Shown one piece after another: positions 1 to 50,539 of a stretch of 64,000 nt of DNA. Under the pieces are notes generated by a model. The model was not told where the DNA came from and did no database searches. It saw only the letters and a list, made by a program, of their open reading frames with translations. Numbering within the stretch: the stretch's first letter is position 1; each line of letters begins with the position of its first letter. The stretch covers positions 5,321 through 69,320 of the forward strand of contig CAKOPC010000003.1 of the NCBI GenBank assembly GCA_934098705.1, given 5' to 3'. The translations under genes and the position numbers were made by a program. The stretch comes from an uncultured Bacilli bacterium (lineage in GTDB: Bacteria; Bacillota_I; Bacilli_A; RF39; UBA660).

Positions 1-2013
1 TATATCTTTTTGTGTCATATCATCAAGTAAAGGTTTGTTGTCTTCTTTAGTTGATATAACAGTTTCCTCTTGTTTTTCTTCATTTTGTTTAGCAAGATTT
101 TCTTCTTGTTCTTCTTTTTCAAGTTCTGCTATTTTCTCATCTATCTTTTTAACTAATTCATTAACATCAAAATCTTGTTTCATAGAGGACATAAACGGAT
201 TATTTTGCATTGTCATTTGTTGTTTAAATGGATTCTCTCCCATAAATGGATTTTCATTATCATTATCTTCCATCATGCTTCTTAATTTTTCTTCACGTTT
301 TTGTTCTACAAATCTTTTTAAATCGAATACTTTTATTGGTTCAATATTTCTTACGACAAATGGATCTGCTTCATAGTTTTTAACGCCCCAATTAATTTTC
401 CAGTTTGGGTATAACTTTGTTTTTAATGGTCTTTGTCTTGTTCTTATAGCAATAGCTTCATGTTCCTTCATAAGTTGTAGTTCTGCAACAGTAATTAAAG
501 GTCTTGATTCTTCATGTTCCTTATCGCCTTTACCTACTTTTACCTTTTTATCACCACAAAGTTTTGATATTTCTTCAAGAGCTGATAGCTCTGTTGTAAG
601 TAAGTATAGTAAGTTGTTACAGTTAGCTCTTATTGTTTGAGCTACTTCTTTTCCATATACAGCATCAAGTCCTGCAAAGTTTTGAATAATCATGGTAAGT
701 CTTATATGTCTTGATCTTGCTGCCGCAACCATAGTTGTTATATCTTTTAATGGTGGCATATTTTGAAACTCATCCAAAATGAAATTAGTTCTTACAGGTA
801 ATACACCATTTTCTGTTTCTTGGGCTACTCCTATTAAAGTTTCATAACATTGTTTTACAAAGATAGTTGCAAGTGAGTGGTATGTCTTTTTTTCATCTTG
901 AATTATTAAAAATACGGCTGTTTTATGTTTTCCAATATCAAACATATCAAAATCACTATGTGATAACATTTCACTTAATATTTCACGTGATGCAAAAAGT
1001 CTTATTTTTTGTTTAAAAGTTGAAAGTATTGAAGCTTTTGTTTCTTCTGCTGCCATTACTGTACCTGATGCACAGGTATAAGCTGCACTTGCTGGATCTT
1101 TATCATTAAAGTATTCTTTTATATAGGTACTTCTACCTGCGAAACGCTCTTCTCCTACTGTTGTCATAACAGAGATACTATTTAAGTTTACTTCTTCTTC
1201 TTTAGCATCTTCAAAAAGTCCAAGAGCTAAAGCTGTAAAATAGTCTGCTGATGATTTTTCCCAGAAAGCATCTTTTTGTCCGCCTTCTTCATACAAAATA
1301 TTACTAGCAACGTCATCTAAAAGTTCCATTGCTTTATCTGTATCACCTGATTTATATAGTTTATATGGTAAGGCAAGTGGATTCCAACAATTACCTTTTT
1401 GTGGTTCACGGAAGTTTAAAACAACAATTTTGTATCCCCTTTTCTTTAATAAACCTGCATTATTTTTATAAATTTCTGCTTTAGGGTCTGTTACAATCAT
1501 TGATTCTCCATGTTTAGCAAGTATTTTAACAAGTGGTAATACAACATCCTGAGTTTTACCAGCACCAGTTGAACCAACAACTATATTATGACTTTCTCCT
1601 GGATCAACCCATATTTCTTTACCATCATTTATAAGTGGAAAACCAGCATCAGTATATACAGGATCTGTTACATTAACTTTTTTTAATGTTTTTTTTGCTT
1701 CTTTTATGGTAGCAAATCTTGAATACCCTTTATCTTCTTTTTCTCCAACACTTATACCAAAACCTTTTTCTTTTTCAAAAAAGTATGATTTTACTCCCAA
1801 TATAATACCAACAAGTGCTAGTAAAAAAAATAAAAGAGTTGTACCAAATAAATTATGTTTAAATATTACAAAAGGATCAAGACCTGCAAAACCAAAGCCT
1901 CTTACTATTGTATATATATTGGCAACTAAGATACTTATAAAATAAAATAATACTATAACAAATAATACAAATATTAACCAATCTTTTGCGGTTGCTTTAA
2001 ATTTTAATTTCAT
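1..2013 (-). CDS. Type IV coupling protein (VirD4/TraG family), partial; 3' end lies beyond window start
   Basis: Minus-strand ORF from ATG at 2013 (GGAGG RBS at 2021-2025) running off position 1; not in the ORF track because it is open-ended. N-terminal TM helices, then Walker A VVGSTGAGKTQ (around 1560-1590). Acidic C-terminal tail. Confidence 0.8.
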   Translation of the reverse strand, partial: MKLKFKATAKDWLIFVLFVIVLFYFISILVANIYTIVRGFGFAGLDPFVIFKHNLFGTTLLFFLLALVGIILGVKSYFFEKEKGFGISVGEKEDKGYSRFATIKEAKKTLKKVNVTDPVYTDAGFPLINDGKEIWVDPGESHNIVVGSTGAGKTQDVVLPLVKILAKHGESMIVTDPKAEIYKNNAGLLKKRGYKIVVLNFREPQKGNCWNPLALPYKLYKSGDTDKAMELLDDVASNILYEEGGQKDAFWEKSSADYFTALALGLFEDAKEEEVNLNSISVMTTVGEERFAGRSTYIKEYFNDKDPASAAYTCASGTVMAAEETKASILSTFKQKIRLFASREILSEMLSHSDFDMFDIGKHKTAVFLIIQDEKKTYHSLATIFVKQCYETLIGVAQETENGVLPVRTNFILDEFQNMPPLKDITTMVAAARSRHIRLTMIIQNFAGLDAVYGKEVAQTIRANCNNLLYLLTTELSALEEISKLCGDKKVKVGKGDKEHEESRPLITVAELQLMKEHEAIAIRTRQRPLKTKLYPNWKINWGVKNYEADPFVVRNIEPIKVFDLKRFVEQKREEKLRSMMEDNDNENPFMGENPFKQQMTMQNNPFMSSMKQDFDVNELVKKIDEKIAELEKEEQEENLAKQNEEKQEETVISTKEDNKPLLDDMTQKDI

Positions 2014-2090
2014 ATTTACCCCTCCAAACGGAATTACTAACATAATTATATCTTATTTTTATAAAAATAACAATTATTATTTTTTAAAAA

Positions 2091-2120
2091 GAAAAAAATT
2101 CACAAAAACTTGTGAATTTT
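2091..2120 (-). terminator. Intrinsic terminator between virB4-like and virD4-like genes
   Basis: Perfect 9-bp inverted repeat AATTCACAA-aaac-TTGTGAATT followed by a U-run on the minus-strand transcript. Confidence 0.45.
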
Positions 2121-3909
2121 ATAGTCCTCCACCACTTCCAAAAGATTCTAATTCTTCTGGTGTTACAACTACATTTATTTGCATTCTTCTTGAACCACAT
2201 ACAAATAATGCGTTACCTTGTGAATATCTTTTTATAGCTTCTTTTTCATTATCATTTAAATCTATTAATAATGATAAATCTTCTACTGCTTGCTTTTTAA
2301 GTCCCATTACTAAGTAATATGAAGCATTATCAAATATTGCTTTTCCTTGTGTTATTACAGCTTGTGGTGTAAAATCACTTGGTTGCTGTGTTATTATTAT
2401 GTTTCCTGTATTATACTTTCTTGCTCTTCTTTGAATTTGTGCTAAAAAGTCTGCTCCTAATACATTACCACCTGATAATAATACATGAGCTTCATCTACC
2501 ATCATTACTGTATTTACATCTGGTTCAAGACATAAACTCCAAGCATATTTTAATACGTTAAAGAAAAGAGCATTTCTAATATTAGTATCACTATTCATTA
2601 GTTCTTTTATATTAAACACGATAAAGTTACTTCTTGGTGCTATTGTTGTATGTCCGTTAAAATAAAATCTTAATTCATTTGTAAGCGGTCTTATTTTAAG
2701 TTCTAGTCTTTCCATTACATCTCTTTCATGCGTCATATCTGTCATTGATATTAATTTACTTTTTATAGTGGCATAAACATCATCAAATGTGGGATATTGC
2801 TGTGATGTAAGACGAGAAAAATCTGTTGTAAAATCTATTCCAAAACGACGATATGTTTCTTGTACTAATTCTATAAATAGATTTAGTACATCTTCATCTA
2901 TTGATGGGTCATAATATTTCATAAAACCTTTTAAAAATTGTAATGTTTTTGTAAGTACAGTATAGCCAAGTCCTTGTTGTATTTCTTCTTCATCAGCATC
3001 TACTAAAACTTCAAGTGGATTTATTAGTCCAAAATCTCCACCTTTTCCTAAATCTATTGTATCTCCTCCAAAAAGACGTACCATATCTACTAATTCATTT
3101 TCTGGGTCTATACATACTACTTTATAGCCATTTCTTATTGATGTTCTAAGTAATAGTTTAGCTGCTGTTGATTTTCCTGAACCTGATGTTCCTAGTATTA
3201 CCATGTTAGCATTGTTTCTATTATGTTCTTTTCTTATTTGATATAAGAACTGATTAAATAGAACTACTCCTCCTGAAAAGTCTGTTCCAAGTAAGCATGA
3301 TGCTCCTGGATCTTTTATACTATCAAATATATAAGGATACATTGCTGCCATTGTTGGACTTGGCATTATTGTTCCAACTCTTTCCTCTATTACTTGTTTT
3401 GGGAATATTGGTAAAATGCTTTTTAATACTTTTTCTTGTTCAAATCTTAATGGTACTGCCCTTAGTCCCATTGCATCTAAGTAGTTTTTAGTTGTTCCTT
3501 TTCTTAATTCTAACTCTTCAAATGTATCTGCTGTTATTACAACATGCATTTGGAAATCAAATATTTTAGACTGAGCTGCTGCAAGTTGTTGTACAAAAGA
3601 TTCTAATGTATCAAAATCTTGTCTTATTCTCTCCTGGTTTGTTCTATCTTTTTCTTCTTGATACCTTACTTTTAAATTTGCTAGCTCCTTATTTAACATT
3701 TTTGATAGCATTGAAAATGGTACTGGTATATGCTTTACTACAATTTTTACCCCAGGCATATTTGTTATATTTGATATATATCCAACACCTATACTTCTAG
3801 GCCATGATACTACTGTTAGTATTGACATATATTTATCGCTTACTACTATATAATTTGGATTTGTAAAATCTAATCCTTTTGGAGCTATTTCACTTTTAAA
3901 TGTACTCAC
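2119..3909 (-). CDS. VirB4/TrbE-family conjugative transfer ATPase (C-terminal ATPase part)
   Basis: 596 aa. Walker A GTSGSGKST, Walker B-like MMVDEAH, overall VirB4/CagE-like layout. Start overlaps the upstream ORF by ATGA. Confidence 0.75.
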   Translation of the reverse strand: MSTFKSEIAPKGLDFTNPNYIVVSDKYMSILTVVSWPRSIGVGYISNITNMPGVKIVVKHIPVPFSMLSKMLNKELANLKVRYQEEKDRTNQERIRQDFDTLESFVQQLAAAQSKIFDFQMHVVITADTFEELELRKGTTKNYLDAMGLRAVPLRFEQEKVLKSILPIFPKQVIEERVGTIMPSPTMAAMYPYIFDSIKDPGASCLLGTDFSGGVVLFNQFLYQIRKEHNRNNANMVILGTSGSGKSTAAKLLLRTSIRNGYKVVCIDPENELVDMVRLFGGDTIDLGKGGDFGLINPLEVLVDADEEEIQQGLGYTVLTKTLQFLKGFMKYYDPSIDEDVLNLFIELVQETYRRFGIDFTTDFSRLTSQQYPTFDDVYATIKSKLISMTDMTHERDVMERLELKIRPLTNELRFYFNGHTTIAPRSNFIVFNIKELMNSDTNIRNALFFNVLKYAWSLCLEPDVNTVMMVDEAHVLLSGGNVLGADFLAQIQRRARKYNTGNIIITQQPSDFTPQAVITQGKAIFDNASYYLVMGLKKQAVEDLSLLIDLNDNEKEAIKRYSQGNALFVCGSRRMQINVVVTPEELESFGSGGGL

Positions 3910-4547
3910 AATGGCATCACCATCCCACTACTATATGTTCTTCCTCCATTTAGGAAGTTATCTAGAACCATTCTTAAATCATCAGTTGATGTTTGACTTG
4001 CTATAAGACCTGCTGCTGCTAAACCGTTTATCATACCTCTTAATTTCTTTTGCATCATATCTACATTTCTTTCTTTAAATAATAAATAGTACTCTGTATC
4101 TACTACACTATTATTTACGAAGTAATCACCCTTATCTAAGTCTTGTCCTATTATTTTTCTTATTGTTGGATCACTTGCTTTATTATATAAAAGTTGTAGT
4201 TCTGCTTGATATACTGCTATATCTACTGGTCTATCTGCTATTACTAACCAAAATTCATAGTCTAGTGTATTATAAAAATTCATAAGTCCTACTAAAGTAT
4301 TATCCATTGAATATCTGTCTAATATGAAAATATTTTTAGGACTTATTTTTACTCCCGTTATCATATCTCCACTTGTATTATAAATTATCCCATTTGATAT
4401 TTTTTTTACATTTATCCAGTTTTCAGTATATTTTGGATTCGTTTGTTCTTCTTTACTTAATACTCTTCTTGTTGATTTTGTATTTGTTTGCCCTCTATTT
4501 ACTTTCGCTCCTACGTTATTTTGCATATTATTCATTGCGTTGTTCAT
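3906..4547 (-). CDS. Probable VirB4 N-terminal domain protein (split VirB4)
   Basis: 213 aa ORF whose stop overlaps the ATG of the ATPase ORF (ATGA, translational coupling). Combined length 809 aa matches full-size VirB4. Confidence 0.4.
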   Translation of the reverse strand: MNNAMNNMQNNVGAKVNRGQTNTKSTRRVLSKEEQTNPKYTENWINVKKISNGIIYNTSGDMITGVKISPKNIFILDRYSMDNTLVGLMNFYNTLDYEFWLVIADRPVDIAVYQAELQLLYNKASDPTIRKIIGQDLDKGDYFVNNSVVDTEYYLLFKERNVDMMQKKLRGMINGLAAAGLIASQTSTDDLRMVLDNFLNGGRTYSSGMVMPL

Positions 4548-4848
4548 ATTTATAACACCATCCTCTCCATATATATTTTCTTCTATTTACATAAAATGCA
4601 AATATATCCTGTATTAAACATAAAACATTATGATAATTTGGTAGTGGAAATACTAACATTCCTGCTATACATACTGGTAGTATTATTAGTATAACATTTT
4701 TTATATCTGCTACTGATGATACCATAAGTAATATTAGTGTTATTGCTATTCCCGCTATAAATATTCCTAGGTCTATTGGCCTAAAGAATCCAAATATTAA
4801 TCTTGCCCTTTTACTATTTGCTGGTACTAAAAATGTTTGTTCTGACAT
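4528..4848 (-). CDS. VirB3-like small membrane protein
   Basis: 106 aa, two hydrophobic helices, positioned immediately upstream of VirB4 as VirB3 homologs usually are. Confidence 0.4.
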   Translation of the reverse strand: MSEQTFLVPANSKRARLIFGFFRPIDLGIFIAGIAITLILLMVSSVADIKNVILIILPVCIAGMLVFPLPNYHNVLCLIQDIFAFYVNRRKYIWRGWCYKYEQRNE

Positions 4849-4886
4849 TTTTTACTGCCCCTTTCTTTTTTGGATTATTTTTTAAT

Positions 4887-7097
4887 TTATCTATTATTGT
4901 TAGTAGCATTATGATTTGCCCTTGTTTTTTCCATTTTATCTTTAGCAGCGGCTTGTGCTGTCTCCATTTTACCTTTAACTGTTGATATATCGTCACTATA
5001 TCCTTCGACTCCAGCTGCCTTAAATAAACCATCAGCAGTATTTAGTATTTTTTGACCTTTTTCTGCCTTTTCAGCATCTATATGTCCTGCTTTAGTTAAG
5101 CTGGCAATTTCAACTGTATTTCCATCAAGCTTAAATTTACCATCATTTTGTAGTGCTGTTGCCACTTGTTGTACTGCACCTTTTTTAGCATCTGCTAATG
5201 CTTTGTTTACATTATCAATACCTTCTGCTCCATTAGCGTCTGTAACACGTAATATTTGTTGTTTTCCGTCTTTATCCACATAGCTAATATCACTTGAAAT
5301 TTGACCTCCATTATTTAGTATTGACTGAGCTTGCTCTAGTTTTCCAAGTCCAAATAAATCACCATTTTTTCTTGCTTCTCCAATAGCATAGTCTTCAAAA
5401 CTGCTACCAGCTTTTAATGCATCATCTGCTGCTTTATATTGTTCCTCGGCTTTATCATAAGCATCTTGATGTCCAAATGTATGTGCAAATCCCGAAGCAA
5501 ATTGTCCCCAGAAACTACCCCCTTGGGCATTTCTTTGTCTTGCTGAAACAGCTCGGTTTCTTTGTCCGCTAACAGCACCGGCTATATTGCTAAATCCTCT
5601 AGCTCCAGCATTTCCGCCTCTTACCATTCCGCCCAAAAGACCTCCTACTGCTGTTCCAAAGTTTCCACCTTTTCCCATACCAGCAATAAAACCAATGCCA
5701 CCTGTTGCTAAGGCTCCAGTTCCAACAAGAGCGGCTGTTTTTAAAGCGTTCATTGATTCTTTAAATGTTCCACCCATATTTTTAATACCTAAAATATCTG
5801 TTATTATATTAGGGATTGTTTTTGCAAATATAAATATTGCAATATATACAAGTAATGCAGAAAGTCCACTAACTTGTGTTGAAAATTTAGATATAAATAA
5901 AACAGCAAGTCTTATTGATAATATTTTTATAAATAAATCAAAATAGCATCCAACATACTTTTGAAACCAATTGTTTAATATTTTATCATTAGGGTTTATA
6001 TATGACATAAAAGCAATAGGTGCTAATATTTGAAGAAGTAATAGTTTAAACGTACGGATAATTACTTCTATACATAAAATTAAAATAACAACAATTAAAC
6101 CAATACCAACTATTATACATATAAATAAGTCAAAATCTATTTCTTTTTGTTCTACTAATTTACCAAAATCTTCGTTACCTTGTGGATTATTTATAAAACT
6201 TGTTTCTAGCAGTTTATCTGGTTGTGATGTAAAGGTTGCCATAATTTCTCTAGCAAATTTAGAACCTTCAGTGTTGCTTGCATTACTTGTACCTAATTCA
6301 ATTTGGTTATATGTATAACCACCTTTTAATAATTCATCTGTTCTAGAGCACTTTTCTATATCATCTGTGAAATTTATGGTAAATTTTAATTGACTTCCAT
6401 TTTTATTAGAATACCAAACACCTTTTAATGCACAATAATTATTTGGTATTGCATCACAAGATGTTACTTTACCGTTCATTTGACAAATAATTTTTTTTGT
6501 ACCAGAACCATTTTTATACGCAGAAGAATTTTTTATATCATCTATTATTCCACTATAGTACATACATCCTTGAATAAGCTCTGCCATACCACCTTTTTTA
6601 TTGTTAGCATTTTCACCACTCATACCGTTACTTGCTATCATACCTCTTGCTTTATTTATTTGTTCCCTACATTCAGCTTGACTATAAGTTTCAGCATTTA
6701 CATCAACTAATCTACTTAGAATACTATCTTCTGCTAACAATGCATTTTGTAACTGATCTAGTTTAGGAACAATTAGACTTTTAAAAGTCATTATAAGAAT
6801 AAGCGATATAACAACTCTTGTTATCATTTTACCTACTCCTGTTTGTTTATCTGCTACCCTATCTGGATCAATTAAATATTCAAACATTGTAACAGTTATT
6901 CTAAATAGCATAAACACTGCAACTAAAACATAAATAGTATCAGTAATTGATGTTATTGTATCGTTAATTACTGATACATCAAAGGCCTTCCCATTTGTAA
7001 AACTTAACATAAGGTTATACGCTTTTGCAACAGTTGTATAAACACCACAACATAATTCAATAAAGATTTCACCAAAATTATAAAATTTTAATATCAT
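4887..7097 (-). CDS. VirB6/TrbL-like polytopic T4SS membrane protein, paralog 1 (Cys-rich loop, Gly-rich segment, long hydrophilic C-terminal tail)
   Basis: 736 aa. N-terminal block shared with the other two paralogs (YVLVAVFMLFRITVTMFEYLIDPDRV), FMSYINPNDKILNNWFQKYVGCYFDLFIK, and GIKNMGGTFKESMNALKT. Several TM helices around a large Cys-containing loop. Confidence 0.6.
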   Translation of the reverse strand: MILKFYNFGEIFIELCCGVYTTVAKAYNLMLSFTNGKAFDVSVINDTITSITDTIYVLVAVFMLFRITVTMFEYLIDPDRVADKQTGVGKMITRVVISLILIMTFKSLIVPKLDQLQNALLAEDSILSRLVDVNAETYSQAECREQINKARGMIASNGMSGENANNKKGGMAELIQGCMYYSGIIDDIKNSSAYKNGSGTKKIICQMNGKVTSCDAIPNNYCALKGVWYSNKNGSQLKFTINFTDDIEKCSRTDELLKGGYTYNQIELGTSNASNTEGSKFAREIMATFTSQPDKLLETSFINNPQGNEDFGKLVEQKEIDFDLFICIIVGIGLIVVILILCIEVIIRTFKLLLLQILAPIAFMSYINPNDKILNNWFQKYVGCYFDLFIKILSIRLAVLFISKFSTQVSGLSALLVYIAIFIFAKTIPNIITDILGIKNMGGTFKESMNALKTAALVGTGALATGGIGFIAGMGKGGNFGTAVGGLLGGMVRGGNAGARGFSNIAGAVSGQRNRAVSARQRNAQGGSFWGQFASGFAHTFGHQDAYDKAEEQYKAADDALKAGSSFEDYAIGEARKNGDLFGLGKLEQAQSILNNGGQISSDISYVDKDGKQQILRVTDANGAEGIDNVNKALADAKKGAVQQVATALQNDGKFKLDGNTVEIASLTKAGHIDAEKAEKGQKILNTADGLFKAAGVEGYSDDISTVKGKMETAQAAAKDKMEKTRANHNATNNNR

Positions 7098-7121
7098 TTT
7101 ACTATTCCCCTTTTTTATTTT

Positions 7122-7484
7122 TTATTTGCATGTTGCAATACCTGTTAAATTTATTATTGCTTTAATTAAAATTGGTATAAATAATATAGCAACACCAATT
7201 ACTAATCTTTTTATAGCAGTACTTTGTGCTTTTTTCATATCATCAGCTTTACCTGCTGCAACAGCTGTTACCATATCTTTAACAATTAATATTAAAGTAA
7301 TACATGGAATTGATATCATTGCTCCAGTATATACATACTTTAATATTTCAACAACTCCAGCACCTAAAATGCTACTACAATCATCAATAATTTCTTCTCC
7401 ACCATTATCTGCAAAACAAGTAAGTGGTGTGAAAAGCAAACTAAGTAATACATATTTTATTTTCTTTATCTTCATAACTTTCAC
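7122..7484 (-). CDS. VirB2/TrbC-like T4SS pilin candidate 1
   Basis: 120 aa. Signal peptide (cleavage about CFA/DNGG), two hydrophobic helices separated by a Lys/Ala-rich loop (KDMVTAVAAGKADDMKKAQSTAIKR). Three Cys in the mature part. Confidence 0.5.
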   Translation of the reverse strand: MKVMKIKKIKYVLLSLLFTPLTCFADNGGEEIIDDCSSILGAGVVEILKYVYTGAMISIPCITLILIVKDMVTAVAAGKADDMKKAQSTAIKRLVIGVAILFIPILIKAIINLTGIATCK

Positions 7485-7586
7485 CTATCAATCCAAATTT
7501 ATTATAGCAAAAAAAAAAATAAATAACAATAAATATTACTTATTTTTTTATTTTAAATGTTTAAAAATGATATTTGACCGTTTTAA

Positions 7587-9974
7587 TTATTTTTTATTAA
7601 CATCCTGACTTGCTTTTTTTGCTTTGTAAGATTTGCTATCTTCAATAGTAGATGCTTTGTCATTTTCCTTAACGGCATAGCTATTGTGATATTCTTTACC
7701 TTTTTTAACACTCTCCCAGCTATATACATCTATAGCTTTATTGCCATTGTCTTCCCCATCTTTATCGTTTGTTGTTAATTCTTTATACATAGACATTTTA
7801 TTTGCTCCTGATTCTTTCATAGTTTGAAGATCTTTATCATTAGTAGCAGTATTGTAATATTCTTCAATAGCTAGATCTGCTAAACCTTTGTTAGTATTAT
7901 CATAATTGCCATGTAATACATCATATTGTTTGCTATATTCCTCTTTAGCTTTTGCTAGAGAACTCTTATATTGTTCATCAACTATTTGATTATACATACT
8001 ATCAGTAATTCCTTCATGACTTATTCCTGCTGCAACACTTTCTCTTGTTATACTATTTTTAACAGCTTCAAGCCTTGTAAGTTCTTCCTTAGCTTTTCTG
8101 TAATCTTTCATATATTTAGAGTTTGTATACTTATCTCCCTTACCTTTATTTAACTCTCCTTCAACATAAGATTTGGCATTATTTGCATAATCAACGGCAA
8201 GTTGATGACTTTTTGCTTTTTCTTTATACTCTTTAATTTTTCTATCCTCATCACTTGTTAAATTAACTCCTAAATGCGATAATTGTCTATCGAGCCAATT
8301 TGAACCATTTAAACGTGCCTCTCTTACATTAACATTTCTTTGTGCCTGATTTATTCCTCCTTCTAAAATGTGTCCTCTGCTTCCACTTGCAAATCCTCTT
8401 CCAAGACCTCCAAATAAACCACCAACGACTGTAGAAAAACTATGACCTTTTCCGGCGCCACTTGCAGCTCCTATAGCTCCTCCAATTAATGCTCCAGTTC
8501 CTGCAAATGCAGTTGTCTTTAAAGCATTCATTGATTCTTTAAATGTTCCACCCATATTTTTAAGTCCAAATATATCACTTATAAAGTTTGGAACTATTTT
8601 AGCAAATATAAATATTCCTATATAGAATAATATTTTAGCAGCTCCTCCATAAGCAAAATCAGTGTTAGCAACTTCATCAATTAATAATACACTTACTTGT
8701 AAAGCTAATAATTTTATAAACAAGTCTAAAAAGCATCCGACATACTTTTGAAACCAATTACTTAAAACTTTATCATTGGGATTTATATATGATACAAAAG
8801 CAATAGGTGCTAACATATTTAGTACAACCATTTTAAACTGACGTATTACAACTTCAATCATTAAAATTAGTATAAAAACAATTATAGCAATACCACAAAT
8901 CACGCAAAGAAAAATGTCAAATTGAAAACTATTTTCTTCATTTTCAACAATTCTTGCAACTGCATCATTAGCATCACTTGACTCTAAAAATTTACATCCA
9001 CCATCACAGTCATTAGAATATGTTGCTTCTGTTATGACTTTAGAATCACTTGCAAATGAACCAACTATACTTCTTGCAAAAGCTGCTCCACCTTCACTAT
9101 TAACCATTTCATCATAAACTATATCTTCTGCTGTTTGATCTATTATAAACATAATATTGTATTCATTATTACCTTTTGAATTTTTTGTTGTAATGTATGT
9201 GCTATCTATGGTTCCTCTTAAAGAAACTCCATTTTTTAATGAACTAGCTGCTTCTTTTATTAAATCATAAAAATTATAATTTATAAATATTTCTCCAATA
9301 CTAGGTAACTCTCCATTATATTTTAAACCATAATAGCTTTTAAGTGCTGCTTTAACAGGACCTTCAACTGAAGTACTATAAAGTTTACAATTATATTCAG
9401 TACCATTTATTTCATTTAATGCTTTACATAGTCCTTTAGATTTAAAATTTTTTGCTGGGCATTCGCGATAAGCTGATATAATATCTTCATTAGTTTTTAT
9501 AAGTCCTTTATTATACATGTTTTCAATATCACACTTGCTACTTCCAGATTCTTCTAAATCACTTCTTTGATCACCACTTCCAACATCAAATATTCTAAAT
9601 AATGGACTATCATTTTCAAGTAAAACTTGTTGTAAATGGTTTACACCTTTTAATATTATTGGAAATGCTATAACAAGTAAAAGAGAAATGATTATTCTTG
9701 ATATAAGTTTTCCAGCACCTTGTTGTTTATCACTAACTTTATCTGGATCTATTAAATACCCAATTAATATCATAGTTATTCTAAATAACATAAATACTGC
9801 AACTAATACATAAATGTTATTTTCAACTGCTTGTATCTTTTCAAAAAATTTTTCTTCTGCAAAATCATTAATAAAATGAATCATCATATCATAGTTTTTA
9901 GCAACACTTGTAAACACCCCCGCTATAAATTTCATAAAAACATATGCAACATTAAAAAATCCAGTCTTCAACAT
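7587..9974 (-). CDS. VirB6/TrbL-like T4SS membrane protein, paralog 2 (different Cys-rich loop and tail)
   Basis: 795 aa. Same conserved blocks as paralog 1 (YVLVAVFMLFRITMILIGYLIDPDKV; FVSYINPNDKVLSNWFQKYVGCFLDLFIK; GLKNMGGTFKESMNALKT). Unrelated ~200-aa loop with 9 Cys. Confidence 0.6.
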   Translation of the reverse strand: MLKTGFFNVAYVFMKFIAGVFTSVAKNYDMMIHFINDFAEEKFFEKIQAVENNIYVLVAVFMLFRITMILIGYLIDPDKVSDKQQGAGKLISRIIISLLLVIAFPIILKGVNHLQQVLLENDSPLFRIFDVGSGDQRSDLEESGSSKCDIENMYNKGLIKTNEDIISAYRECPAKNFKSKGLCKALNEINGTEYNCKLYSTSVEGPVKAALKSYYGLKYNGELPSIGEIFINYNFYDLIKEAASSLKNGVSLRGTIDSTYITTKNSKGNNEYNIMFIIDQTAEDIVYDEMVNSEGGAAFARSIVGSFASDSKVITEATYSNDCDGGCKFLESSDANDAVARIVENEENSFQFDIFLCVICGIAIIVFILILMIEVVIRQFKMVVLNMLAPIAFVSYINPNDKVLSNWFQKYVGCFLDLFIKLLALQVSVLLIDEVANTDFAYGGAAKILFYIGIFIFAKIVPNFISDIFGLKNMGGTFKESMNALKTTAFAGTGALIGGAIGAASGAGKGHSFSTVVGGLFGGLGRGFASGSRGHILEGGINQAQRNVNVREARLNGSNWLDRQLSHLGVNLTSDEDRKIKEYKEKAKSHQLAVDYANNAKSYVEGELNKGKGDKYTNSKYMKDYRKAKEELTRLEAVKNSITRESVAAGISHEGITDSMYNQIVDEQYKSSLAKAKEEYSKQYDVLHGNYDNTNKGLADLAIEEYYNTATNDKDLQTMKESGANKMSMYKELTTNDKDGEDNGNKAIDVYSWESVKKGKEYHNSYAVKENDKASTIEDSKSYKAKKASQDVNKK

Positions 9975-10189
9975 TATATTTCACCTCTATTTTTTAATTA
10001 AAATAGTAATTAAATAGCGGATTGTTATTGAATTATTAATGTTTTTATTTCAAATAATTGTTAAACTTTCAAAAAAAATTTACACTGTATTATTTTGTAA
10101 TAAAATTAATATAATTAAGCCTTTAAAAACATATTTTATACTTCCACTACACTACCTATCCTATTAGTTTAATTATAACCAATATTTAA

Positions 10190-10230
10190 CTTTATTGCAA
10201 TAAAAAATGTAAACAGTTTTTATGTGTCTA
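10190..10230 (-). terminator. Intrinsic terminator after VirB6-like paralog 3
   Basis: Inverted repeat AAATGTAAACA-gtttttatg-TGTCTACATTT lies immediately 3' of the paralog 3 stop (10266). The minus-strand RNA has a U-run after the hairpin. Confidence 0.4.
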
Positions 10231-10265
10231 CATTTATCTTAAAACTTCGCAATATGTCTAGTTTT

Positions 10266-12041
10266 TTATTTAGATTTCTTACTATCTCTTTTACTTTCTG
10301 TTGGTGTTTTTGTTTTTGGATCATATCCTGATTTGTTATGTTCTTTAGCAATTTTAAGAGCAATAGCTGCATCTTGGATTGCTTCTTGTTTTGCTTTGTC
10401 TGTTTTATCTTTAGCCTGTACTGTTGATACTCTTGATGGTGTAACTCCAACAAACTTCTCACTGGCATCTAATCTTGATGCTAAAGTTACAATATTTTTT
10501 TGGAAGGCATTAGCATTACCATTTAAGAACGCTTCTTTTGCTTCTATTAACTGACTTGCTCTTGCAAGACCTTTCTTTTCTCCCCAAGCTTCATCTAACA
10601 TTCTTAATTTTTCACTTGTATCTTCTGTTTCATTAAACTTTTGTAGTTTTTCACCTGTCACACCGAAGGCATTAGCATAAGCAAATTTTTCTTCAAGTGT
10701 ACCAGAATCATATATGTTTTGTAATTGTTGCATTGATTTATCACTACTAAATACTGACCCATCAAGAGCACCATCAAGGGCTTTGTAATTATCCCCAGCA
10801 CTTTTAGCAGCATCTTTATGCTGAGTTGCACTTTTAATCCAAGGAAATTTGTTTTGTATTTCATCTTTTTGAGCTTCACGCCAACCTATTCCTTCGGCTT
10901 TTCTTTTGGCAACAGCAGTATTACTGCTACTAAATGCTTTACCAACATTACCAATTTTTCCTGAAAAACCAGAATTTAAAACTGCAAATGTTTGTCCTAT
11001 GGTACCTTTGTTGGCTGCTGTTACAAATGCTCCAGCTGTACCAACTGCAGTAACAAGGGATGTTTTTACAGCATTCATTGAATCTTTAAATGTTCCACCC
11101 ATATTTTTAATACCAAAGATTTCACTTATAAAGTTTGGAACTGTCTTAGCAAATACAAATGCTCCAAAATATAATAATAATTTATTAAATCCTGTAACAG
11201 AATCATTTAAAAGTCCAATAAAATATATTGCCATATTTATTCCCAATATTTTAACAAATAAATCTAAATAACAACCAATAAATTTACTAGTCCAATTATT
11301 TAAAACTTTATCATTGGGATTTATATATGATATAAAGGCTACCGGAGATAATACTCTTAAAATTAATAGTTTAAAGTTTCGTATAACAACTTCAATACAT
11401 AAAGCAGCTAATAATACACAAAGAGCAATTCCACATAAAATACTCATAAAAATATCTATTGATATTTCTTCTTCTTCTACTTTTTTTGATATATCATCAT
11501 TACCTTCTTTAGTTATTAAAAAATCACTTTCTAATACTTCATCTGGATTTTTTGATAATGATGCTACCATCTCTCTTGCAAAAGCTATTCCTGCTGTATA
11601 TTCTTTGCTACTATCTACATTAGTTTTATTATTTTGCGGATTAAACAAAGTATATAATACACTTTTACCATCACTTGGATTTAAAATAGCTTCTTCTAGT
11701 GGTGATATTACTGTATCCATAACAACTGGAAATCCTATAACTAATATTAATGATATTACAATTCTTGTTAACATTTTTCCAGTACCTGTTTGTTTATCAT
11801 TTAACTTATCTGGATCTATTAGGTATCCAAACATTGTAACAGTTATTCTAAATAGCATAAAAATTGCTATTAATGTATAAACATTTTCTATAATATTTCC
11901 TATTTCTTCATTTAGTATTTGTGAACCAGTAAGCATCTTAGTATAAGATACCATTCCATCGTATACCATAGCAACTGTTGAAAATATCCATGATAAAAAT
12001 TTTGTAAATATTTCTCCTGCATTAAATAATTTTAATATCAT
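10266..12041 (-). CDS. VirB6/TrbL-like T4SS membrane protein, paralog 3 (short loop without Cys)
   Basis: 591 aa. Same conserved N-terminal, FISYINPNDKVLNNW and GIKNMGGTFKDSMNAVKT blocks. Loop reduced to ~90 aa. Confidence 0.6.
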   Translation of the reverse strand: MILKLFNAGEIFTKFLSWIFSTVAMVYDGMVSYTKMLTGSQILNEEIGNIIENVYTLIAIFMLFRITVTMFGYLIDPDKLNDKQTGTGKMLTRIVISLILVIGFPVVMDTVISPLEEAILNPSDGKSVLYTLFNPQNNKTNVDSSKEYTAGIAFAREMVASLSKNPDEVLESDFLITKEGNDDISKKVEEEEISIDIFMSILCGIALCVLLAALCIEVVIRNFKLLILRVLSPVAFISYINPNDKVLNNWTSKFIGCYLDLFVKILGINMAIYFIGLLNDSVTGFNKLLLYFGAFVFAKTVPNFISEIFGIKNMGGTFKDSMNAVKTSLVTAVGTAGAFVTAANKGTIGQTFAVLNSGFSGKIGNVGKAFSSSNTAVAKRKAEGIGWREAQKDEIQNKFPWIKSATQHKDAAKSAGDNYKALDGALDGSVFSSDKSMQQLQNIYDSGTLEEKFAYANAFGVTGEKLQKFNETEDTSEKLRMLDEAWGEKKGLARASQLIEAKEAFLNGNANAFQKNIVTLASRLDASEKFVGVTPSRVSTVQAKDKTDKAKQEAIQDAAIALKIAKEHNKSGYDPKTKTPTESKRDSKKSK

Positions 12042-12107
12042 ATAAACTGCCCCCTAAGTAAATTGACAACTATATATTATACAATAAAATAGGTAAAATA
12101 ACAAGAA

Positions 12108-13145
12108 TTAATTTTTTTGAATAGGATTTTCTTTAACTTTTAGACTATCTTCATAATATTGTTTTATTAATCTTCTTACATTTTCTTCATTAAAAGCATA
12201 CTTTAACATCTTATTTATTTGATTTTCGGTGCAGAAAAAATTAACGCACTTGTTTTCTAAGTCTTCATTATCTTGATATTTATTAAGATATGATTCCACC
12301 AAAAAATAAGCTACGCTATTTAATTTATCTTCTACTTTTCTATCAATTAATGGATTATATTTAATGTAAAGTAATTTGTCAGTATCCACAATGAAATTCA
12401 AAACAGATGTAACATCATTATATCTTGTTAATAAAGCAATCAAATGATATAAATCAGCTTTAAAGTATAGATACTCCATGTTTTTTTCTCCCACTATTCC
12501 TTCCAAATATTTAGCAATTTGGGCTTGATATTCATAAGATTTAGTTGTATCGTTAAAATATTTTTTATTTAAAACCTGTGTATATCCTTCATTTATGGCG
12601 CGACCATACGTCTTAGTCTTTGACACGAATATACTTTGAGAAAAGCCACAATATGCCACTTTTCCTGTAAATAGTGTACTTGCAGCATGCAATAATTCAT
12701 GTGTTATTACTTCATTTTTATAATTATAAATACTTATCTTATTTTTTACAGTACTATATGCTCCATCAATATATATAAAGTGTAATATACTTTTTATAAA
12801 GTATGAAATATCAGTTGTTTTAGTTAATGTTGTCAAGTTATTAAATAACAATTCATATGAAAATTCGGGATTTTTTTCTTTTAAAGTTTTTATAAAATTT
12901 ATTATTACATCTTTCATTTCCTGATTAAATGTATTTGATATTTCAAAGTCTTGTTTTTCATATTTAAAATCAGGTCTTATAATTATTTCTTTTAATTCTT
13001 CGTTTTTACATAGTTTTATTCTTTTTTTACCCTCTATAAAACCACCATATACAACAAATGTTGATATAAACGTTACAATTTCTTTTACTTTTTCAATATC
13101 AATATTATTAATAATATTTTCTATATCAAAAATATTTAAGTTCAT
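12108..13145 (-). CDS. HExxH-motif protein (putative zinc metallopeptidase) encoded within the T4SS operon
   Basis: ITHELLHAAS motif. Likely start is the internal ATG at 13145, preceded by AAAGGAGGTAAAATT, rather than the ORF-track start at 13208. Confidence 0.45.
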   Translation of the reverse strand: MNLNIFDIENIINNIDIEKVKEIVTFISTFVVYGGFIEGKKRIKLCKNEELKEIIIRPDFKYEKQDFEISNTFNQEMKDVIINFIKTLKEKNPEFSYELLFNNLTTLTKTTDISYFIKSILHFIYIDGAYSTVKNKISIYNYKNEVITHELLHAASTLFTGKVAYCGFSQSIFVSKTKTYGRAINEGYTQVLNKKYFNDTTKSYEYQAQIAKYLEGIVGEKNMEYLYFKADLYHLIALLTRYNDVTSVLNFIVDTDKLLYIKYNPLIDRKVEDKLNSVAYFLVESYLNKYQDNEDLENKCVNFFCTENQINKMLKYAFNEENVRRLIKQYYEDSLKVKENPIQKN

Positions 13146-13215
13146 AATTTTACCTCCTTTTTTATTATAACAAAAAAACCAAATAACAACTAGTGCTATT
13201 TGGTTCATGTATTAA

Positions 13216-13554
13216 TTAGTCTTTTTTAGGGCAAGCTTCTGGCTTAGTTGCACAAGTCCAGCAAATGGAAGAATCATTGTTTTCATTTCCTCCAACTAAA
13301 TTAAATACTGCTTGTACTACAGTTACGACAAAGAATATTACAACACCATAAATAATTCTCTTAATAAGCATTTTTTGGGCTTCTTTTATTTCCTTGTCAT
13401 CTCCAGCCATTACAGCTTTACCTAAGTCTAAAATTGCAAGTAATACGATAATTATTGGAATTACAATTTTAAAAATATTAATAATGATACCAATTAAACG
13501 CCAAATGTTAGCAGTATCACTACAAAATTGAGCAGCTTCATCTAATAAAAACAT
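13216..13554 (-). CDS. VirB2/TrbC-like T4SS pilin candidate 2 (Cys-rich C-terminal tail)
   Basis: 112 aa. Two hydrophobic helices around a loop (DLGKAVMAGDDKEIKEAQKMLIKR) that aligns with the loop of pilin candidate 1. C-terminus CWTCATKPEACPKKD. Confidence 0.45.
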   Translation of the reverse strand: MFLLDEAAQFCSDTANIWRLIGIIINIFKIVIPIIIVLLAILDLGKAVMAGDDKEIKEAQKMLIKRIIYGVVIFFVVTVVQAVFNLVGGNENNDSSICWTCATKPEACPKKD

Positions 13555-13677
13555 ATATATAACCTCTCTTTCTCACATATTTATATTACATAATATTTTA
13601 TATTTTGTCAACTTTAATTAAGAAATTTTACAATTATTTTATTTTATGTTATTATATTTTAGGAAAAGAGGAAGTAT

Positions 13678-14157
13678 ATGAAAAAGATTTTTATAATATT
13701 GGCTGTAATTATTGCTACTTTAATATCTTTAATACTTATATTTAATAACAAAGATAATAATAGTTATTTAAAAGAGATAAACTATGAAGATTATATAAAT
13801 ATGGTAAACGATAATGAAACATTTATTTTATATGTTAAGCAAACTAATTGTAAACATTGTACTGCTTTTACTCCAATTTTTACAAATGTATTAAATAAAA
13901 ATAAAGTTTTGGCATATGTTATTAATTTAACTGATATGGATAATGATAATAAAGAAACTTTTCTTAATGAGTTAAGTATTAATGGTACCCCTACTGTTCT
14001 TTTCTTTCAAGAAGGTGTTGAACTTGGTAAATTTTCAAGAATATCTGGTGAAAAATCTGCAGAATATGTTACTAAAAAGTTAAAAGATTTAGGTTTTATA
14101 AAAGATTCTTTAGATGATGATACTAATAAAGAAAATAATGATAAAAAAGAAGATTAA
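13678..14157 (+). CDS. Membrane-anchored thioredoxin-fold protein (CxxC thiol-disulfide oxidoreductase-like)
   Basis: N-terminal TM anchor, CKHC active-site motif in a thioredoxin-like context (ILYVKQTNCKHCTAF ... PTVLFF). AGGAAAAGAGG RBS. Confidence 0.7.
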   Translation: MKKIFIILAVIIATLISLILIFNNKDNNSYLKEINYEDYINMVNDNETFILYVKQTNCKHCTAFTPIFTNVLNKNKVLAYVINLTDMDNDNKETFLNELSINGTPTVLFFQEGVELGKFSRISGEKSAEYVTKKLKDLGFIKDSLDDDTNKENNDKKED

Positions 14158-14158
14158 A

Positions 14159-14199
14159 AAAAGCATTTGGATTAATAATTAATTCCAAGTGCTTTTTTA
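14159..14199. terminator. Bidirectional intrinsic terminator
   Basis: AAAAAAGCATTTGG-loop-CCAAGTGCTTTTTT hairpin between convergent genes. Confidence 0.4.
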
Positions 14200-14215
14200 T
14201 TACTATTATTTTACT

Positions 14216-14509
14216 TTAAACTTCTTCATCTTTTTCATTTTTACTTAAAAAATATACAACTACTGTTCCTAATAAAACAATTATAGATATTTTAACAACT
14301 GTTGCTACATTTAATGGTTCATCTTTAGTTTGTTCTTTTATTTCCTCTTTTGGCACTTCAGTAGTAACCTCAATTTCTTCTTTTGTTTCAGTATCATTTA
14401 CTTCTTCGTCATTATATTCATCTGCCTTTACATTAAAGTTAAAACTAAAACTAATTAGCAAAATAAATATTATAGCAATAATTTTTTTAAAGTATCCTTT
14501 ATTTTTCAT
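14216..14509 (-). CDS. Small exported protein with acidic Glu/Lys-rich middle and C-terminal TM anchor
   Basis: 97 aa. Signal peptide, then a C-terminal hydrophobic helix. Confidence 0.4.
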   Translation of the reverse strand: MKNKGYFKKIIAIIFILLISFSFNFNVKADEYNDEEVNDTETKEEIEVTTEVPKEEIKEQTKDEPLNVATVVKISIIVLLGTVVVYFLSKNEKDEEV

Positions 14510-14539
14510 ATTTTCCTCCTACTATTCTTTTTATATATT

Positions 14540-14890
14540 TTATATTTTCTTGATACCCTTATCTTTATAATTTAAATACTCATTTAAGGCATTATTATAT
14601 CTTTCTATATCTTCTTCTTTATATAATTTTAAGGCATCTATAACATATTTTTGATTTACTTCTTCTAAAGATTTAACATTAGTATCATTAAGTTTTATTC
14701 CTGTTATACAATCATATAAATTGTTATCTATAAGTTCTGCTATTACAAAAACGTTTTCATATGTTTTTATGTCCTGATATGAAAAGTCATTTAAGCATGT
14801 AAATCTCACTCTTCCTATTATAGCTTCAAGTATATTAAGGAGCATGCCATTTGTATCATTATCAAGATATATTTTATAATATTTTTTCAT
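14540..14890 (-). CDS. Hypothetical protein
   Basis: ORF overlaps the upstream phosphorylase gene by a few codons. Start probably at MKKYYK (14890). Confidence 0.35.
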   Translation of the reverse strand: MKKYYKIYLDNDTNGMLLNILEAIIGRVRFTCLNDFSYQDIKTYENVFVIAELIDNNLYDCITGIKLNDTNVKSLEEVNQKYVIDALKLYKEEDIERYNNALNEYLNYKDKGIKKI

Positions 14891-22612: not shown

Positions 22613-24082
22613 TTAAATAAATCTTTCCCAATGTTCTCTTACAGATGTTGAAACACAATTATAATATTTATGAAGTTGATCATTTATTAATTTTGCTTTT
22701 TTATTTAGTGGAGTACCATCATTGTAATATGGTCTTTTTGTTGTTCTAGTCATCATATCAGAAAACAAAACTGCTCTATCTTCTAAATAACTTTGCCTTG
22801 AATAATATGATAAGAAATAGGCATCATTTGGATTTGAAAAATTATAATCATAGGTACTATCATTAGAACCATAATTAAATCCTTCTGGATTATAGGATTT
22901 CATTATTTCTGCTAAATTTAATGTTGGATCTTTTTGTCTCATATAAATATCTATATAGTGCATTAATTCATGGTGAAGGGTATACTCAAACAAATTAGTA
23001 CCATCCGTTCCAATAGTTACTGTAATATTACTTTGATTCCTTCCATCTGTCATCCCAGAATGACCACCATTTATTTTATTTACCATATAGATTCTAAGAG
23101 ATACATTATTATCTTTCATTTCTTTAAAGAAACCATTTGGATATTTTTTTAATGTAGATTCAATTTCTTTCAAATACTTATTTATCTCATTATCATCATA
23201 TAGTTTTTCAGTATTTATAGATCCACCAATTAAGTAATTTCCATTCTCATCCTTATATACGATTTTAACTAAATATTTATTTTCTAATTTTTTTCTATAT
23301 TCATCATTTATTTCAGCCTGTGGTTTTGGTTCGGATTTTGGTTCTGGCTCTTTTGGAGGATTAGGTTTATTTTCCTCTGGTTTTGGTTTTGTTGTTCCAC
23401 CATTTTGGCCATTACTTTTATTATTATTAATGTTATTGTTATTTTTATTTACACTATTGTTTTGATTTGAATTATTTTTATTGTTATTAGTTTTATTATT
23501 TTTTTTATTTAATTCTTCTTTTTTTGATTGCTCTTCTTTTTTATTTTCTTCTTTATTATCTGTAACTTGTTCTTCTTTTTTAAGTTGTTCTTTACTTATT
23601 TCTTTTTTAATATAATCTATTTTAAATATATCTAAATCTGATATTTTAACTTTTCCTTCTTTTAAAGCAGTTATAATATTTTCACTAAAATGATTTGAAC
23701 TATAATTTACTTTTATGTATTCACTTTTCATACAACTTAAAAAATAAATATATTCATCATCTCTGTATATTTCCTCTAGGGCTTCAGCACATGTAAAATC
23801 TTTAATATTCTTACTTTCATCTATTATTTCAAAAGTCGTTTTTTTTAAAGGACAAGAATATTTTTCCCATTTTAAAACTGTTTTTCTTTTTTCACCTATG
23901 CAATTATAAGTATAGGTAATTAGTCCTTTGTCTTTATAATAAAGTGTCCCTCCATCAAAGTGTTCCCTTATCTTTAATACTGGACTATTTTGAAATATGA
24001 GTGCTTGTGATATATCAATAATAATTAAAATAATTATTGAGAATACTGCTATTAATATATATTTTTTATACTTATTCAACAT
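22613..24082 (-). CDS. Membrane-anchored HExxH metalloprotease-like exoprotein with Asn/Lys- and Pro-rich low-complexity linker
   Basis: N-terminal TM. Linker NNKNNSNQNN...PKPEENKPNPPKEPEPKSEPKPQ. C-terminal domain with YTLHHELMHYID. Confidence 0.5.
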   Translation of the reverse strand: MLNKYKKYILIAVFSIIILIIIDISQALIFQNSPVLKIREHFDGGTLYYKDKGLITYTYNCIGEKRKTVLKWEKYSCPLKKTTFEIIDESKNIKDFTCAEALEEIYRDDEYIYFLSCMKSEYIKVNYSSNHFSENIITALKEGKVKISDLDIFKIDYIKKEISKEQLKKEEQVTDNKEENKKEEQSKKEELNKKNNKTNNNKNNSNQNNSVNKNNNNINNNKSNGQNGGTTKPKPEENKPNPPKEPEPKSEPKPQAEINDEYRKKLENKYLVKIVYKDENGNYLIGGSINTEKLYDDNEINKYLKEIESTLKKYPNGFFKEMKDNNVSLRIYMVNKINGGHSGMTDGRNQSNITVTIGTDGTNLFEYTLHHELMHYIDIYMRQKDPTLNLAEIMKSYNPEGFNYGSNDSTYDYNFSNPNDAYFLSYYSRQSYLEDRAVLFSDMMTRTTKRPYYNDGTPLNKKAKLINDQLHKYYNCVSTSVREHWERFI

Positions 24083-46477: not shown

Positions 46478-46544
46478 ATTATTCCCCCTTAACTTATTAT
46501 TTGATTATACCATATATTCCAATTTATTTTTTTACAAAACAATT

Positions 46545-46580
46545 AGAAATTAAAAAAAGCCACTTTATTAGGTGGCATCA
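46545..46580 (-). terminator. Intrinsic terminator after the methyltransferase gene
   Basis: GCCACC-taataaa-GTGGC hairpin followed by a U-run on the minus-strand RNA. Confidence 0.4.
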
Positions 46581-50406: not shown

Positions 50407-50539
50407 ACCTTGCCTCCAATTGTTTTACATAATAATATTTTAACACATATAATTTATCTTTTCAATATTTTTTTGAATATTTCAATATATTTTTTTGCTA
50501 TTTACTTGCATTTTTATCTTTTTAGAGTGATTAATACAC

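Follow-up and report, generated by a model that had tools for sequence, protein, structure and literature searches.

Pilin-like hairpin proteins with conserved cysteine pairs and a linked thioredoxin-fold gene in a chromosomal type IV secretion cassette of uncultured Bacilli

The first 14,157 positions of the DNA stretch analysed here (hereafter the window: 64,000 nucleotides of contig CAKOPC010000003.1, assembly GCA_934098705.1, from an uncultured Bacilli bacterium; G+C ca. 25%) hold a compact chromosomal type IV secretion system (T4SS) cassette, in which two small genes, small A (7122..7484, minus strand, 120 aa) and small B (13216..13554, minus strand, 112 aa), encode pilin-like two-helix hairpins with conserved and paired cysteines at their ends, and in which a divergent gene (13678..14157, plus strand, 159 aa) encodes a membrane-anchored thioredoxin-fold protein. 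We consider it rather probable (although well short of certain) that small A and small B are paralogous VirB2-like hairpins stapled by disulfides, that the loops of the accompanying VirB6-like proteins are disulfide-bonded as well, and that the anchored thioredoxin-fold protein acts as a dedicated oxidase or isomerase. The features from which a preliminary description of this DNA had set out (the 120- and 112-aa genes with their matching loops and Cys-rich ends, the CWTCATKPEACPKK tail and the gene with the CKHC active site) were all found again at their positions.

With the exception of the divergent thioredoxin-fold gene all genes of the cassette (window positions 1-14157) lie on the minus strand, and their order, counted from that gene, is small B – ORF345 – VirB6c – VirB6b – small A – VirB6a – VirB3-like – VirB4 N-domain – VirB4 – VirD4. 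By scanning one genome per species, we identified relatives in 202 genomes (uncultured Bacilli, ‘Mycoplasma sp. CAG:611’, uncultured Tenericutes, Erysipelotrichaceae and similar), among which the ‘Mycoplasma sp. CAG’ / uncultured Tenericutes group is what we take to be the GTDB order RF39. Throughout about 80 fetched loci or species-level genomes the same succession recurs: one or two B-type genes, an A-type gene, a VirB6 gene, a gene for a 106-aa protein, a gene for a 213-aa protein, VirB4 and VirD4.

Kinship and fold of small A and small B

Small A starts with a GTG codon (gene callers elsewhere choose Met4, which yields 117 aa), and its translation comprises a signal peptide (…LTCFA/DNGG), a hairpin with the loop KDMVTAVAAGKADDMKKAQSTAIKR and the C-terminus …IATCK, with Cys36 placed before the first transmembrane helix (TM1) and Cys119 at the C-terminal end. 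Small B has the loop DLGKAVMAGDDKEIKEAQKMLIKR and the tail …SSICWTCATKPEACPKKD, bears four cysteines (C11, C98, C101 and C108) and, in common with its whole family, is devoid of a signal peptide. As the pairwise BLASTP comparison of the two proteins was not significant, their kinship had to be assessed through profiles: the A-family and B-family profiles align over the TM1–loop–TM2 core (76 columns) with an hhalign probability of 99.65% (E 5e-25), from which it follows that small A and small B are paralogues, and that the likeness of their loops (already pointed out in the preliminary description) is not a product of chance. Furthermore, a 126-aa homologue with the loop KDMVQAVMAGEEKQIKEAQSNAVKR (locus L004) bridges the two families. 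The AlphaFold2 (AF2) models place helices at residues 2-12, 14-49, 52-87 and 95-102 of small B (mean predicted local distance difference test score, pLDDT, 81.6), and, in small A, a signal-peptide helix followed by helices at 42-77 and 80-114 (hairpin pLDDT ca. 80), both predicted hairpins being formed by 36+36-residue helices. Structure comparison returned only generic hairpins, which indicates that fold searches cannot discriminate a helical hairpin of this kind.

The assignment of both proteins to VirB2/TrbC-like pilins, as initially proposed, stood in part. On the one hand, the TrbC/VirB2 family proper (PF04956) was essentially unmatched, with hits at E<=0.01 in only 2 of the 71 B-type relatives and no match for either small A or small B. 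On the other hand, T4SS_pilin (PF18895) was found to be the dominant family of the A-type proteins (46/55 at E<=0.01, best 1.8e-9) and to match 41 of the 71 B-type relatives at the same threshold (best 3.7e-6); at the level of the window proteins the signal is sub-threshold, small B scoring 20.6 bits (E 4.9e-4) for a gathering score of 26.6 and small A having no match. The architecture typical of PF18895 (a small protein with a short polar loop flanked by two hydrophobic helices, its gene neighbouring those of the T4SS core) is present in the window as well as in about 80 related loci. Moreover, NF045849 (‘Mbov_0395 family pilin-like conjugal transfer protein’) matches 13 of 55 A-type proteins, which represents a weak but specific link. 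Taken together, what stands of the pilin assignment is the two-helix hairpin, the family-level membership in PF18895 and the position within a T4SS array.

For small B, 185 close homologues were found, and its profile recovers 8,228 clusters (at 50% identity) with E<=0.001 among 1.84 billion proteins; neither homologues nor clusters carry a descriptive name in the databases searched, and ten representative hits that were looked up yielded neither name nor taxon. Where VirB6 is conserved at 30-52% identity, small B (in the same comparisons) is conserved at 60-79%, and small A diverges about as fast as the neighbouring VirB6. This pace of divergence suggests that small A is a VirB6-associated minor or adaptor subunit, and small B, by virtue of its conservation and of the terminator-like hairpin that trails it, is a candidate for the abundant subunit. 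The terminator-like hairpin in question (13176..13206, minus strand) is situated just past the small B stop codon and is the sole site of its kind in the interval 12000-14600 (0.2 expected by chance); it hints at a differential expression of small B, whose transcript it may raise over those of the downstream genes. As regards the A-type proteins, their C-terminal motif (T/S)C-G-I-(G/K) is nearly invariant, with 0-5 residues beyond the cysteine (positions 7122-7136 in small A), and could be a processing or recognition site.

Paired cysteines and the thioredoxin-fold gene

Exported proteins of Firmicutes generally avoid cysteines, and several of the predicted surface proteins encoded in the window contain 0-2 of them. 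The mean cysteine content of the window proteins is 1.2%, and that of small A and small B reaches 3.3-3.6%. Within the B-type family (71 sequences) every member has C11 and C98, and at least 90% have C101 and C108; within the A-type family (43 sequences) the invariant positions are C36 and C119. Among 168 unique pilin-like domains, we observed one cysteine before TM1 and one after TM2 in 91 cases, and one before and three after in 65 cases; this 1 + 1-or-3 pattern hence accounts for 156 domains, and most of the 12 exceptions are parsing errors (signal peptide read as TM1, truncated ORF, i.e. open reading frame). The second and third tail cysteines of the B-type proteins co-occur (both present in 150 sequences, both absent from 34, with one genuine exception), and in the A-type protein of locus L058 both end cysteines were lost together. 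Read from the sequence, the hairpin has a loop of net charge +2 between two acidic ends, in keeping with a topology that has the loop inside and the ends outside. In such a topology the cysteines would lie at extracytoplasmic positions, and the exposure that the preliminary description ascribed to them agrees with this placement and with their conservation in pairs. The simplest connectivity in the B-type proteins would be that C11 pairs with C98, which ties the external ends together, and C101 with C108, which delimits a small C-terminal loop.

A comparable signature is found in the VirB6-like proteins, whose large loop (between TM3 and TM4) contains 1.86% cysteine versus 0.04% in the long cytoplasmic C-terminal tail. 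The number of loop cysteines is even in 66 of 71 VirB6 proteins (0, 2, 4, 6, 8, 10, 12 or 18; binomial p ~1e-14), and, while related VirB6 sequences are not independent, the even counts are so varied as to speak against simple inheritance. In the window, VirB6a (4887..7097, minus strand, 736 aa) and VirB6b (7587..9974, minus strand, 795 aa) have 6 cysteines each in the large outer loop, and VirB6c (10266..12041, minus strand, 591 aa) has a short outer loop with none. Furthermore, loci with a thioredoxin gene carry more VirB6-loop cysteines (Mann-Whitney p 2e-4, uncorrected for phylogeny). The suggestion that the VirB6 loops might share in a disulfide maturation step was thus strengthened by their composition and parity.

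The thioredoxin-fold protein possesses an N-terminal transmembrane (TM) anchor, a CKHC active site and a GTPT cis-Pro loop, and matches PF00085 above the cutoff (E 1.5e-9, 38.2 bits, cutoff 23.5). Its linkage to the T4SS was scored with a family hidden Markov model over 87 related loci, and the gene was found in 40 of them, without exception upstream of the T4SS and in the opposite orientation (head-to-head); the 40 homologues all keep the CxxC motif (mostly CxHC), the GTPT cis-Pro loop and an N-terminal TM anchor or lipobox. In 32 loci of the closer relatives no more than 1.5 kb separate it from the first pilin-like gene, and among the distant ones it heads an enlarged, Tad-containing cluster (7 loci; in several others the head falls beyond the fetched sequence), the head position being thereby kept across two cluster architectures. 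In these distant relatives (L048:763-9904 and some 30 further loci of class II, among them L026, L040, L049, L063 and L076) a Tad-pilus-like module is intercalated between the thioredoxin and the pilin-like genes, and consists of a CpaB-like gene, a CpaF/VirB11-like ATPase, TadB, TadC, one or two 148-aa proteins and a 328-aa protein. On its far side the thioredoxin gene has neighbours that, over 31 loci, belong to 19 unrelated clusters and are mostly housekeeping genes, and since this neighbour varies and the T4SS side is constant, we argue that the T4SS is the conserved partner with which the thioredoxin gene travels. The linkage, first noted as an adjacency in the window, therefore holds in related elements. 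The divergent region shared by small B and the thioredoxin gene (13555..13677, 123 bp) contains back-to-back promoter-like hexamers, which constitute weak evidence, as their number is not enriched (31 found versus 23.6 expected in shuffles).

Proposed maturation step and competing explanations

According to the explanation that we favour, the pilin-like subunits would insert into the membrane as two-helix hairpins, with both ends outside and the basic loop in the cytoplasm, and the cysteine before TM1 and the one after TM2 would form an intramolecular disulfide that staples the external ends. Such a staple would be the redox counterpart of the head-to-tail cyclisation of TrbC/VirB2, to which the B-type proteins would add a second, small disulfide loop (C101-C108), and the large external loops of the VirB6 paralogues would likewise be disulfide-bonded. 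The anchored CxHC enzyme, which would be transcribed from the same intergenic region, probably oxidises or shuffles the end cysteines and those of the VirB6 loops, and the stapled subunits would then assemble together with VirB6, VirB3 and VirB4.

Several observations weigh against this explanation. No pilus is known from any monoderm of this group, and neither of the two small proteins of the window reaches the Pfam gathering score for PF18895; moreover, an unrelated nematode 7TM family also matches 41 of the 71 B-type relatives, which denotes that the PF18895 signal is in part compositional. The association between the thioredoxin gene and the VirB6-loop cysteines carries the phylogenetic reservation given above, and a re-oxidising partner (DsbB/VKOR-like) was not seen in the cassette. 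Furthermore, about half of the related loci (mostly of the distant class) keep paired cysteines with no thioredoxin gene in the 10 kb seen, from which we conclude that the enzyme is either not obligatory or replaced by another oxidoreductase. A possible substitute is found at locus L009 (no adjacent thioredoxin gene), where an unrelated membrane-anchored thioredoxin-like ORF with a CPWC motif (12071-12775) is situated ca. 5 kb downstream of VirD4.

It is conceivable, if rather unlikely in our judgement, that the small proteins never leave the membrane and serve as embedded channel or stalk subunits of a monoderm T4SS, their cysteines either stabilising the ends or bridging to the VirB6 loops intermolecularly. 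Monoderm T4SSs have been described as pilus-less (PMC12857230), and the A-type gene is always located directly before (i.e. upstream of) a VirB6 gene, together with which it duplicates as an A–VirB6 pair (L035, L042 and L043). In many relatives, moreover, the A-type hairpin forms the C-terminal end of a secreted and often Cys-rich protein of 200-650 aa (e.g. L077:6022-7986, L063:10555-12174 and L050:10443-12134); these fusions suggest a surface protein anchored in the membrane, with a pilin-like domain as its base, for which the role of a C-terminal anchor fits better than that of a packed filament subunit. Against membrane-confined subunits stand the properties of small B, which is small, highly conserved and followed by a terminator-like hairpin (as expected of an abundant structural subunit), and the strict 1+1 or 1+3 distribution of cysteines within each protein, which argues for intramolecular pairs.

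Another explanation, to which we assign a low probability, is that the thioredoxin-fold protein merely adjoins the T4SS and functions as a general extracytoplasmic oxidoreductase, or else as a reductase that keeps cysteines reduced. Its best NCBIfam match is the PedC/BrcD disulfide isomerase family (TIGR01295), with a score far below the family cutoff (E 8.7e-11, 41.9 bits versus 120), and the same holds for the F-type TrbB family (TIGR02738; E 9e-5, 22.2 bits versus 132), the resemblance to which would be one of function and not of membership; PF20207 (PedC-like) appears in the precomputed annotations of the gene. The retention of cysteines in the loci (about half of the total) without a thioredoxin gene nearby, and a cassette without the partner oxidase, would also be compatible with a general enzyme. 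Conversely, the position at the head of the T4SS and the orientation are kept in two architectures, against a changing neighbour on the other side (19 clusters in 31 loci), and most members of the family have the CxHC motif, which accompanies an oxidising potential in DsbA and PDI. Lastly, the match to the PedC/BrcD bacteriocin maturation family and the CxxC…C pattern of the small B tail could evoke a bacteriocin-type pair (a Cys-containing exported peptide and its disulfide maturation factor), a reading that we rejected as very improbable on the grounds of context (leader peptide, ABC exporter and immunity gene are all lacking, and small B always lies within the T4SS array) and of the homology of small B, a two-TM hairpin, to small A.

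Cassette composition, genomic setting and closest known systems

The distal part of the cassette encodes its ATPases. The gene at 1..2043 (minus strand) specifies a VirD4-type coupling protein (PF02534 T4SS-DNA_transf, E 5e-59, together with TraG-D_C and TrwB_AAD_bind), the C-terminus of which lies beyond the window edge; the full-length protein of the same species (locus L091) has 700 aa. It is preceded by a VirB4-type ATPase of 596 aa (2119..3909, minus strand), the best match of which is NF045975 (‘Mbov_0397 family ICE conjugal transfer ATPase’, where ICE stands for integrative and conjugative element; E 3.6e-103, model positions 297-893; also AAA_10 and P-loop_TraG), and by a 213-aa protein (3906..4547, minus strand) that resembles the N-terminal domain of the Mycoplasma ICE VirB4 (NF045975 model positions 97-276, E 1.8e-10). 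The gene for the latter is located directly upstream of VirB4 in all relatives where VirB4 was found, and as the two proteins cover consecutive parts of one model, we conclude that in the window, as in all relatives, two overlapping genes together make up a split VirB4. A two-TM protein of 106 aa (4528..4848, minus strand; weak TcpE match, E 0.013) occupies the VirB3/TcpE position between VirB6 and VirB4, as it does in all relatives where both were found, and on the strength of this position it is probably VirB3-like.

The three VirB6 paralogues match TrbL_4 (PF19597; E 5.6e-12 for VirB6a, 2.8e-11 for VirB6b and 1.4e-10 for VirB6c), and the VirB6s additionally match the Mycoplasma ICE TM proteins NF045848/NF045889; the 291-bp gap between VirB6b and VirB6c was inspected for a remnant pilin-like gene, and none was found. 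Between VirB6c and small B lies an ORF of 345 or 366 aa of unknown function (12108..13208, minus strand; 345 aa as called in the same species), for which no family was matched in Pfam and NCBIfam. The shorter start is favoured, since the terminator-like hairpin trailing small B falls inside the longest reading, and the slot of this ORF is occupied in relatives (e.g. L004) by a CHAP/M23 cell-wall hydrolase. HExxH-like motifs are present in three family-less ORFs of the window: THELLH in this one, HHELMH at 22613-24082 and FHEIEH at 60807-61625. The Mycoplasma genetic code 4 (with TGA as a sense codon) is disfavoured by the long intact ORFs obtained under table 11.

As to whether the cassette forms part of a conjugative element, the initial description as a conjugation system could not be upheld. 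Comparison of positions 7000-14200 with plasmid DNA (megablast and blastn) gave nothing, and neither did a tblastn search with small B against 72,556 plasmids; a pCP13-like or any other known plasmid origin is accordingly without support. For the PcpB2 pilin of pCP13, which had been invoked as a precedent, no verification was obtained: the gene table consulted for that plasmid contains pcpB1, pcpB4, pcpB6 and pcpD4, and pcpB2 is not among its entries. In the same species, the cassette is flanked past VirD4 by a Fic-domain gene, Band_7 and an adhesin, and past the thioredoxin gene by a pyrimidine-nucleoside phosphorylase (PYNP), helix-turn-helix (HTH) regulators and a single-stranded DNA-binding protein (SSB), and the gene past VirD4 in other species is MutS, TruB, FtsY or RlmN. 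In precomputed Pfam annotations and by ORF inspection, the 10 kb around the cassette showed no relaxase and no integration or replication module, although a relaxase could still be encoded elsewhere in the genome. At all loci examined the cassette was without an adjoining relaxase, integrase or transposase, the DDE transposase of the Mycoplasma ICE type included (inverted repeats were not searched for). Given the chromosomal location, the housekeeping flanks and the lack of a visible relaxase or integrase, a conjugative role is unproven.

The Fic-domain gene (L091:14091-14990, 299 aa), which would fall a little outside the window on the side of position 1, is the next gene after VirD4, has the same orientation, and is succeeded by Band_7, a VCA0040-like gene and a VWA/MucBP adhesin. 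Fic proteins are T4SS-delivered toxins or effectors in other bacteria, and by analogy the one encoded at L091 could be a substrate of this T4SS. In the species that carries P0047 (L003, L004 and L005) the cassette stops at VirB4, past which come DUF1016 and EzrA, and small B is succeeded by a CHAP/M23 hydrolase gene; since no VirD4 is found nearby, VirD4 is not universal in the family. This species is very prevalent, P0047 being indexed in 1,739 blocks of the contig collection. Elsewhere in the window, and not contiguous with the T4SS, the region 44765-57314 starts with a restriction-modification and helicase block (44765-50192), after which come phage- or element-like genes for an HNH endonuclease, a replication-like protein, an XRE/LexA-like repressor, a tyrosine integrase seemingly in two pieces (54016-55127) and a pair of IS3-type transposase proteins (55198-56360).

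Among known systems, the T4SSs of Mycoplasma ICEs and the pilin arrays of Patescibacteria come closest, rather than pCP13. The NCBIfam families of the Mycoplasma ICE (ICEA/MICE; CDS5 VirD4, CDS15/16 membrane proteins, CDS17 VirB4) score best for the VirB4, VirB6 and pilin-like proteins of the window, and both systems have the order pilin-like gene, TM protein and VirB4, a monoderm low-GC host and no canonical relaxase annotated. They differ in that the window proteins score below the equivalog cutoffs (VirB4 345.9 versus 590 bits, VirB6a 54.5 versus 90, small B 16.3 versus 40), that VirB4 is split in two genes and the flanks are housekeeping genes, and that no DDE transposase, CDS14-type lipoprotein or other ICE backbone genes were seen at the window cassette; for MICE, paired cysteines and a thioredoxin gene are not described in PMC6030558. 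The T4SSs of Patescibacteria (the Candidate Phyla Radiation, CPR) are likewise chromosomal and mostly relaxase-less, comprise a VirB4 of the mating-pair formation (MPF) type MPF-FATA together with VirB3, VirB6 and VirD4, and include arrays of sequence-divergent VirB2-like pilins (found with PF18895/PF04956) in small genomes (PMC12102498, PMC12857230). The host of the window belongs in contrast to a Bacilli lineage, and its arrays consist of 2-3 genes as compared to 2-11 in Patescibacteria. Neither of these two papers mentions disulfides or thioredoxin (PMC12102498, PMC12857230); the review of December 2025 considers VirB2 to be absent from Gram-positive T4SSs with Patescibacteria as the single exception (PMC12857230), and the origin of the patescibacterial pilins was left open by a study of the same year (PMC12102498).

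With regard to the enzyme, the F-plasmid protein TrbB is a T4SS-encoded disulfide isomerase, the clients of which are TraN, TraU and TraH (with 22, 11 and 6 cysteines, respectively; PMC11315126). Both TrbB and the window protein are CxxC thioredoxin-fold enzymes encoded with a T4SS that has Cys-rich exported components, but TrbB is soluble, periplasmic and from a diderm, whereas the enzyme of the window is membrane-anchored (a lipoprotein in some relatives) and from a monoderm; furthermore, the F pilin is not a proposed client of TrbB, while here the pilin-like subunits themselves bear the conserved cysteines. PedC/BrcD are, similarly to the window enzyme, extracytoplasmic thioredoxin-fold enzymes of Firmicutes acting on small exported Cys-containing proteins; the difference resides in the absence of a bacteriocin locus at the window, where the genomic partner is a T4SS. 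Covalent closure or stabilisation of small pilins is known from TrbC (RP4) and VirB2 (Ti), which are closed by a head-to-tail peptide bond, and from the ComGC pseudopilin of Bacillus subtilis, a type IV (T2SS-like, i.e. type II secretion system-like) and not VirB2-like pilin that has an intramolecular, BdbDC-dependent disulfide. What is proposed here differs from both, as a VirB2-like hairpin would be closed by a disulfide that links its N-terminal segment to its C-terminal one. T4SS_pilin arrays of VirB2-like proteins and disulfide isomerases linked to a T4SS are known kinds, and, as far as the literature was compared, a conserved N-to-C cysteine pairing in a monoderm has not been described.

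We put forward, as a speculative extension that is more likely to be wrong than right, the idea that a relaxase-less chromosomal T4SS with stapled VirB2-like arrays and its own thioredoxin is widespread and vertically kept in reduced-genome gut Bacilli, where, in parallel to the essential T4SS of Patescibacteria, it would be used for contacts between cells or for uptake and not for conjugation. VirB2-like arrays in Bacilli, standing beside a T4SS core of the Mycoplasma ICE type in the window and in at least 200 related species-level genomes, bear directly on the origin of the patescibacterial pilins: if this extension is accurate, VirB2-like pilins would already be present in the monoderm MPF-FATA lineage that is thought to be the source of the patescibacterial system, and an N-to-C disulfide would represent a new way to close a conjugative-type pilin. 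The strict pairing of the cysteines and the thioredoxin gene that travels with them would, moreover, amount to a concrete and testable maturation step in monoderms.

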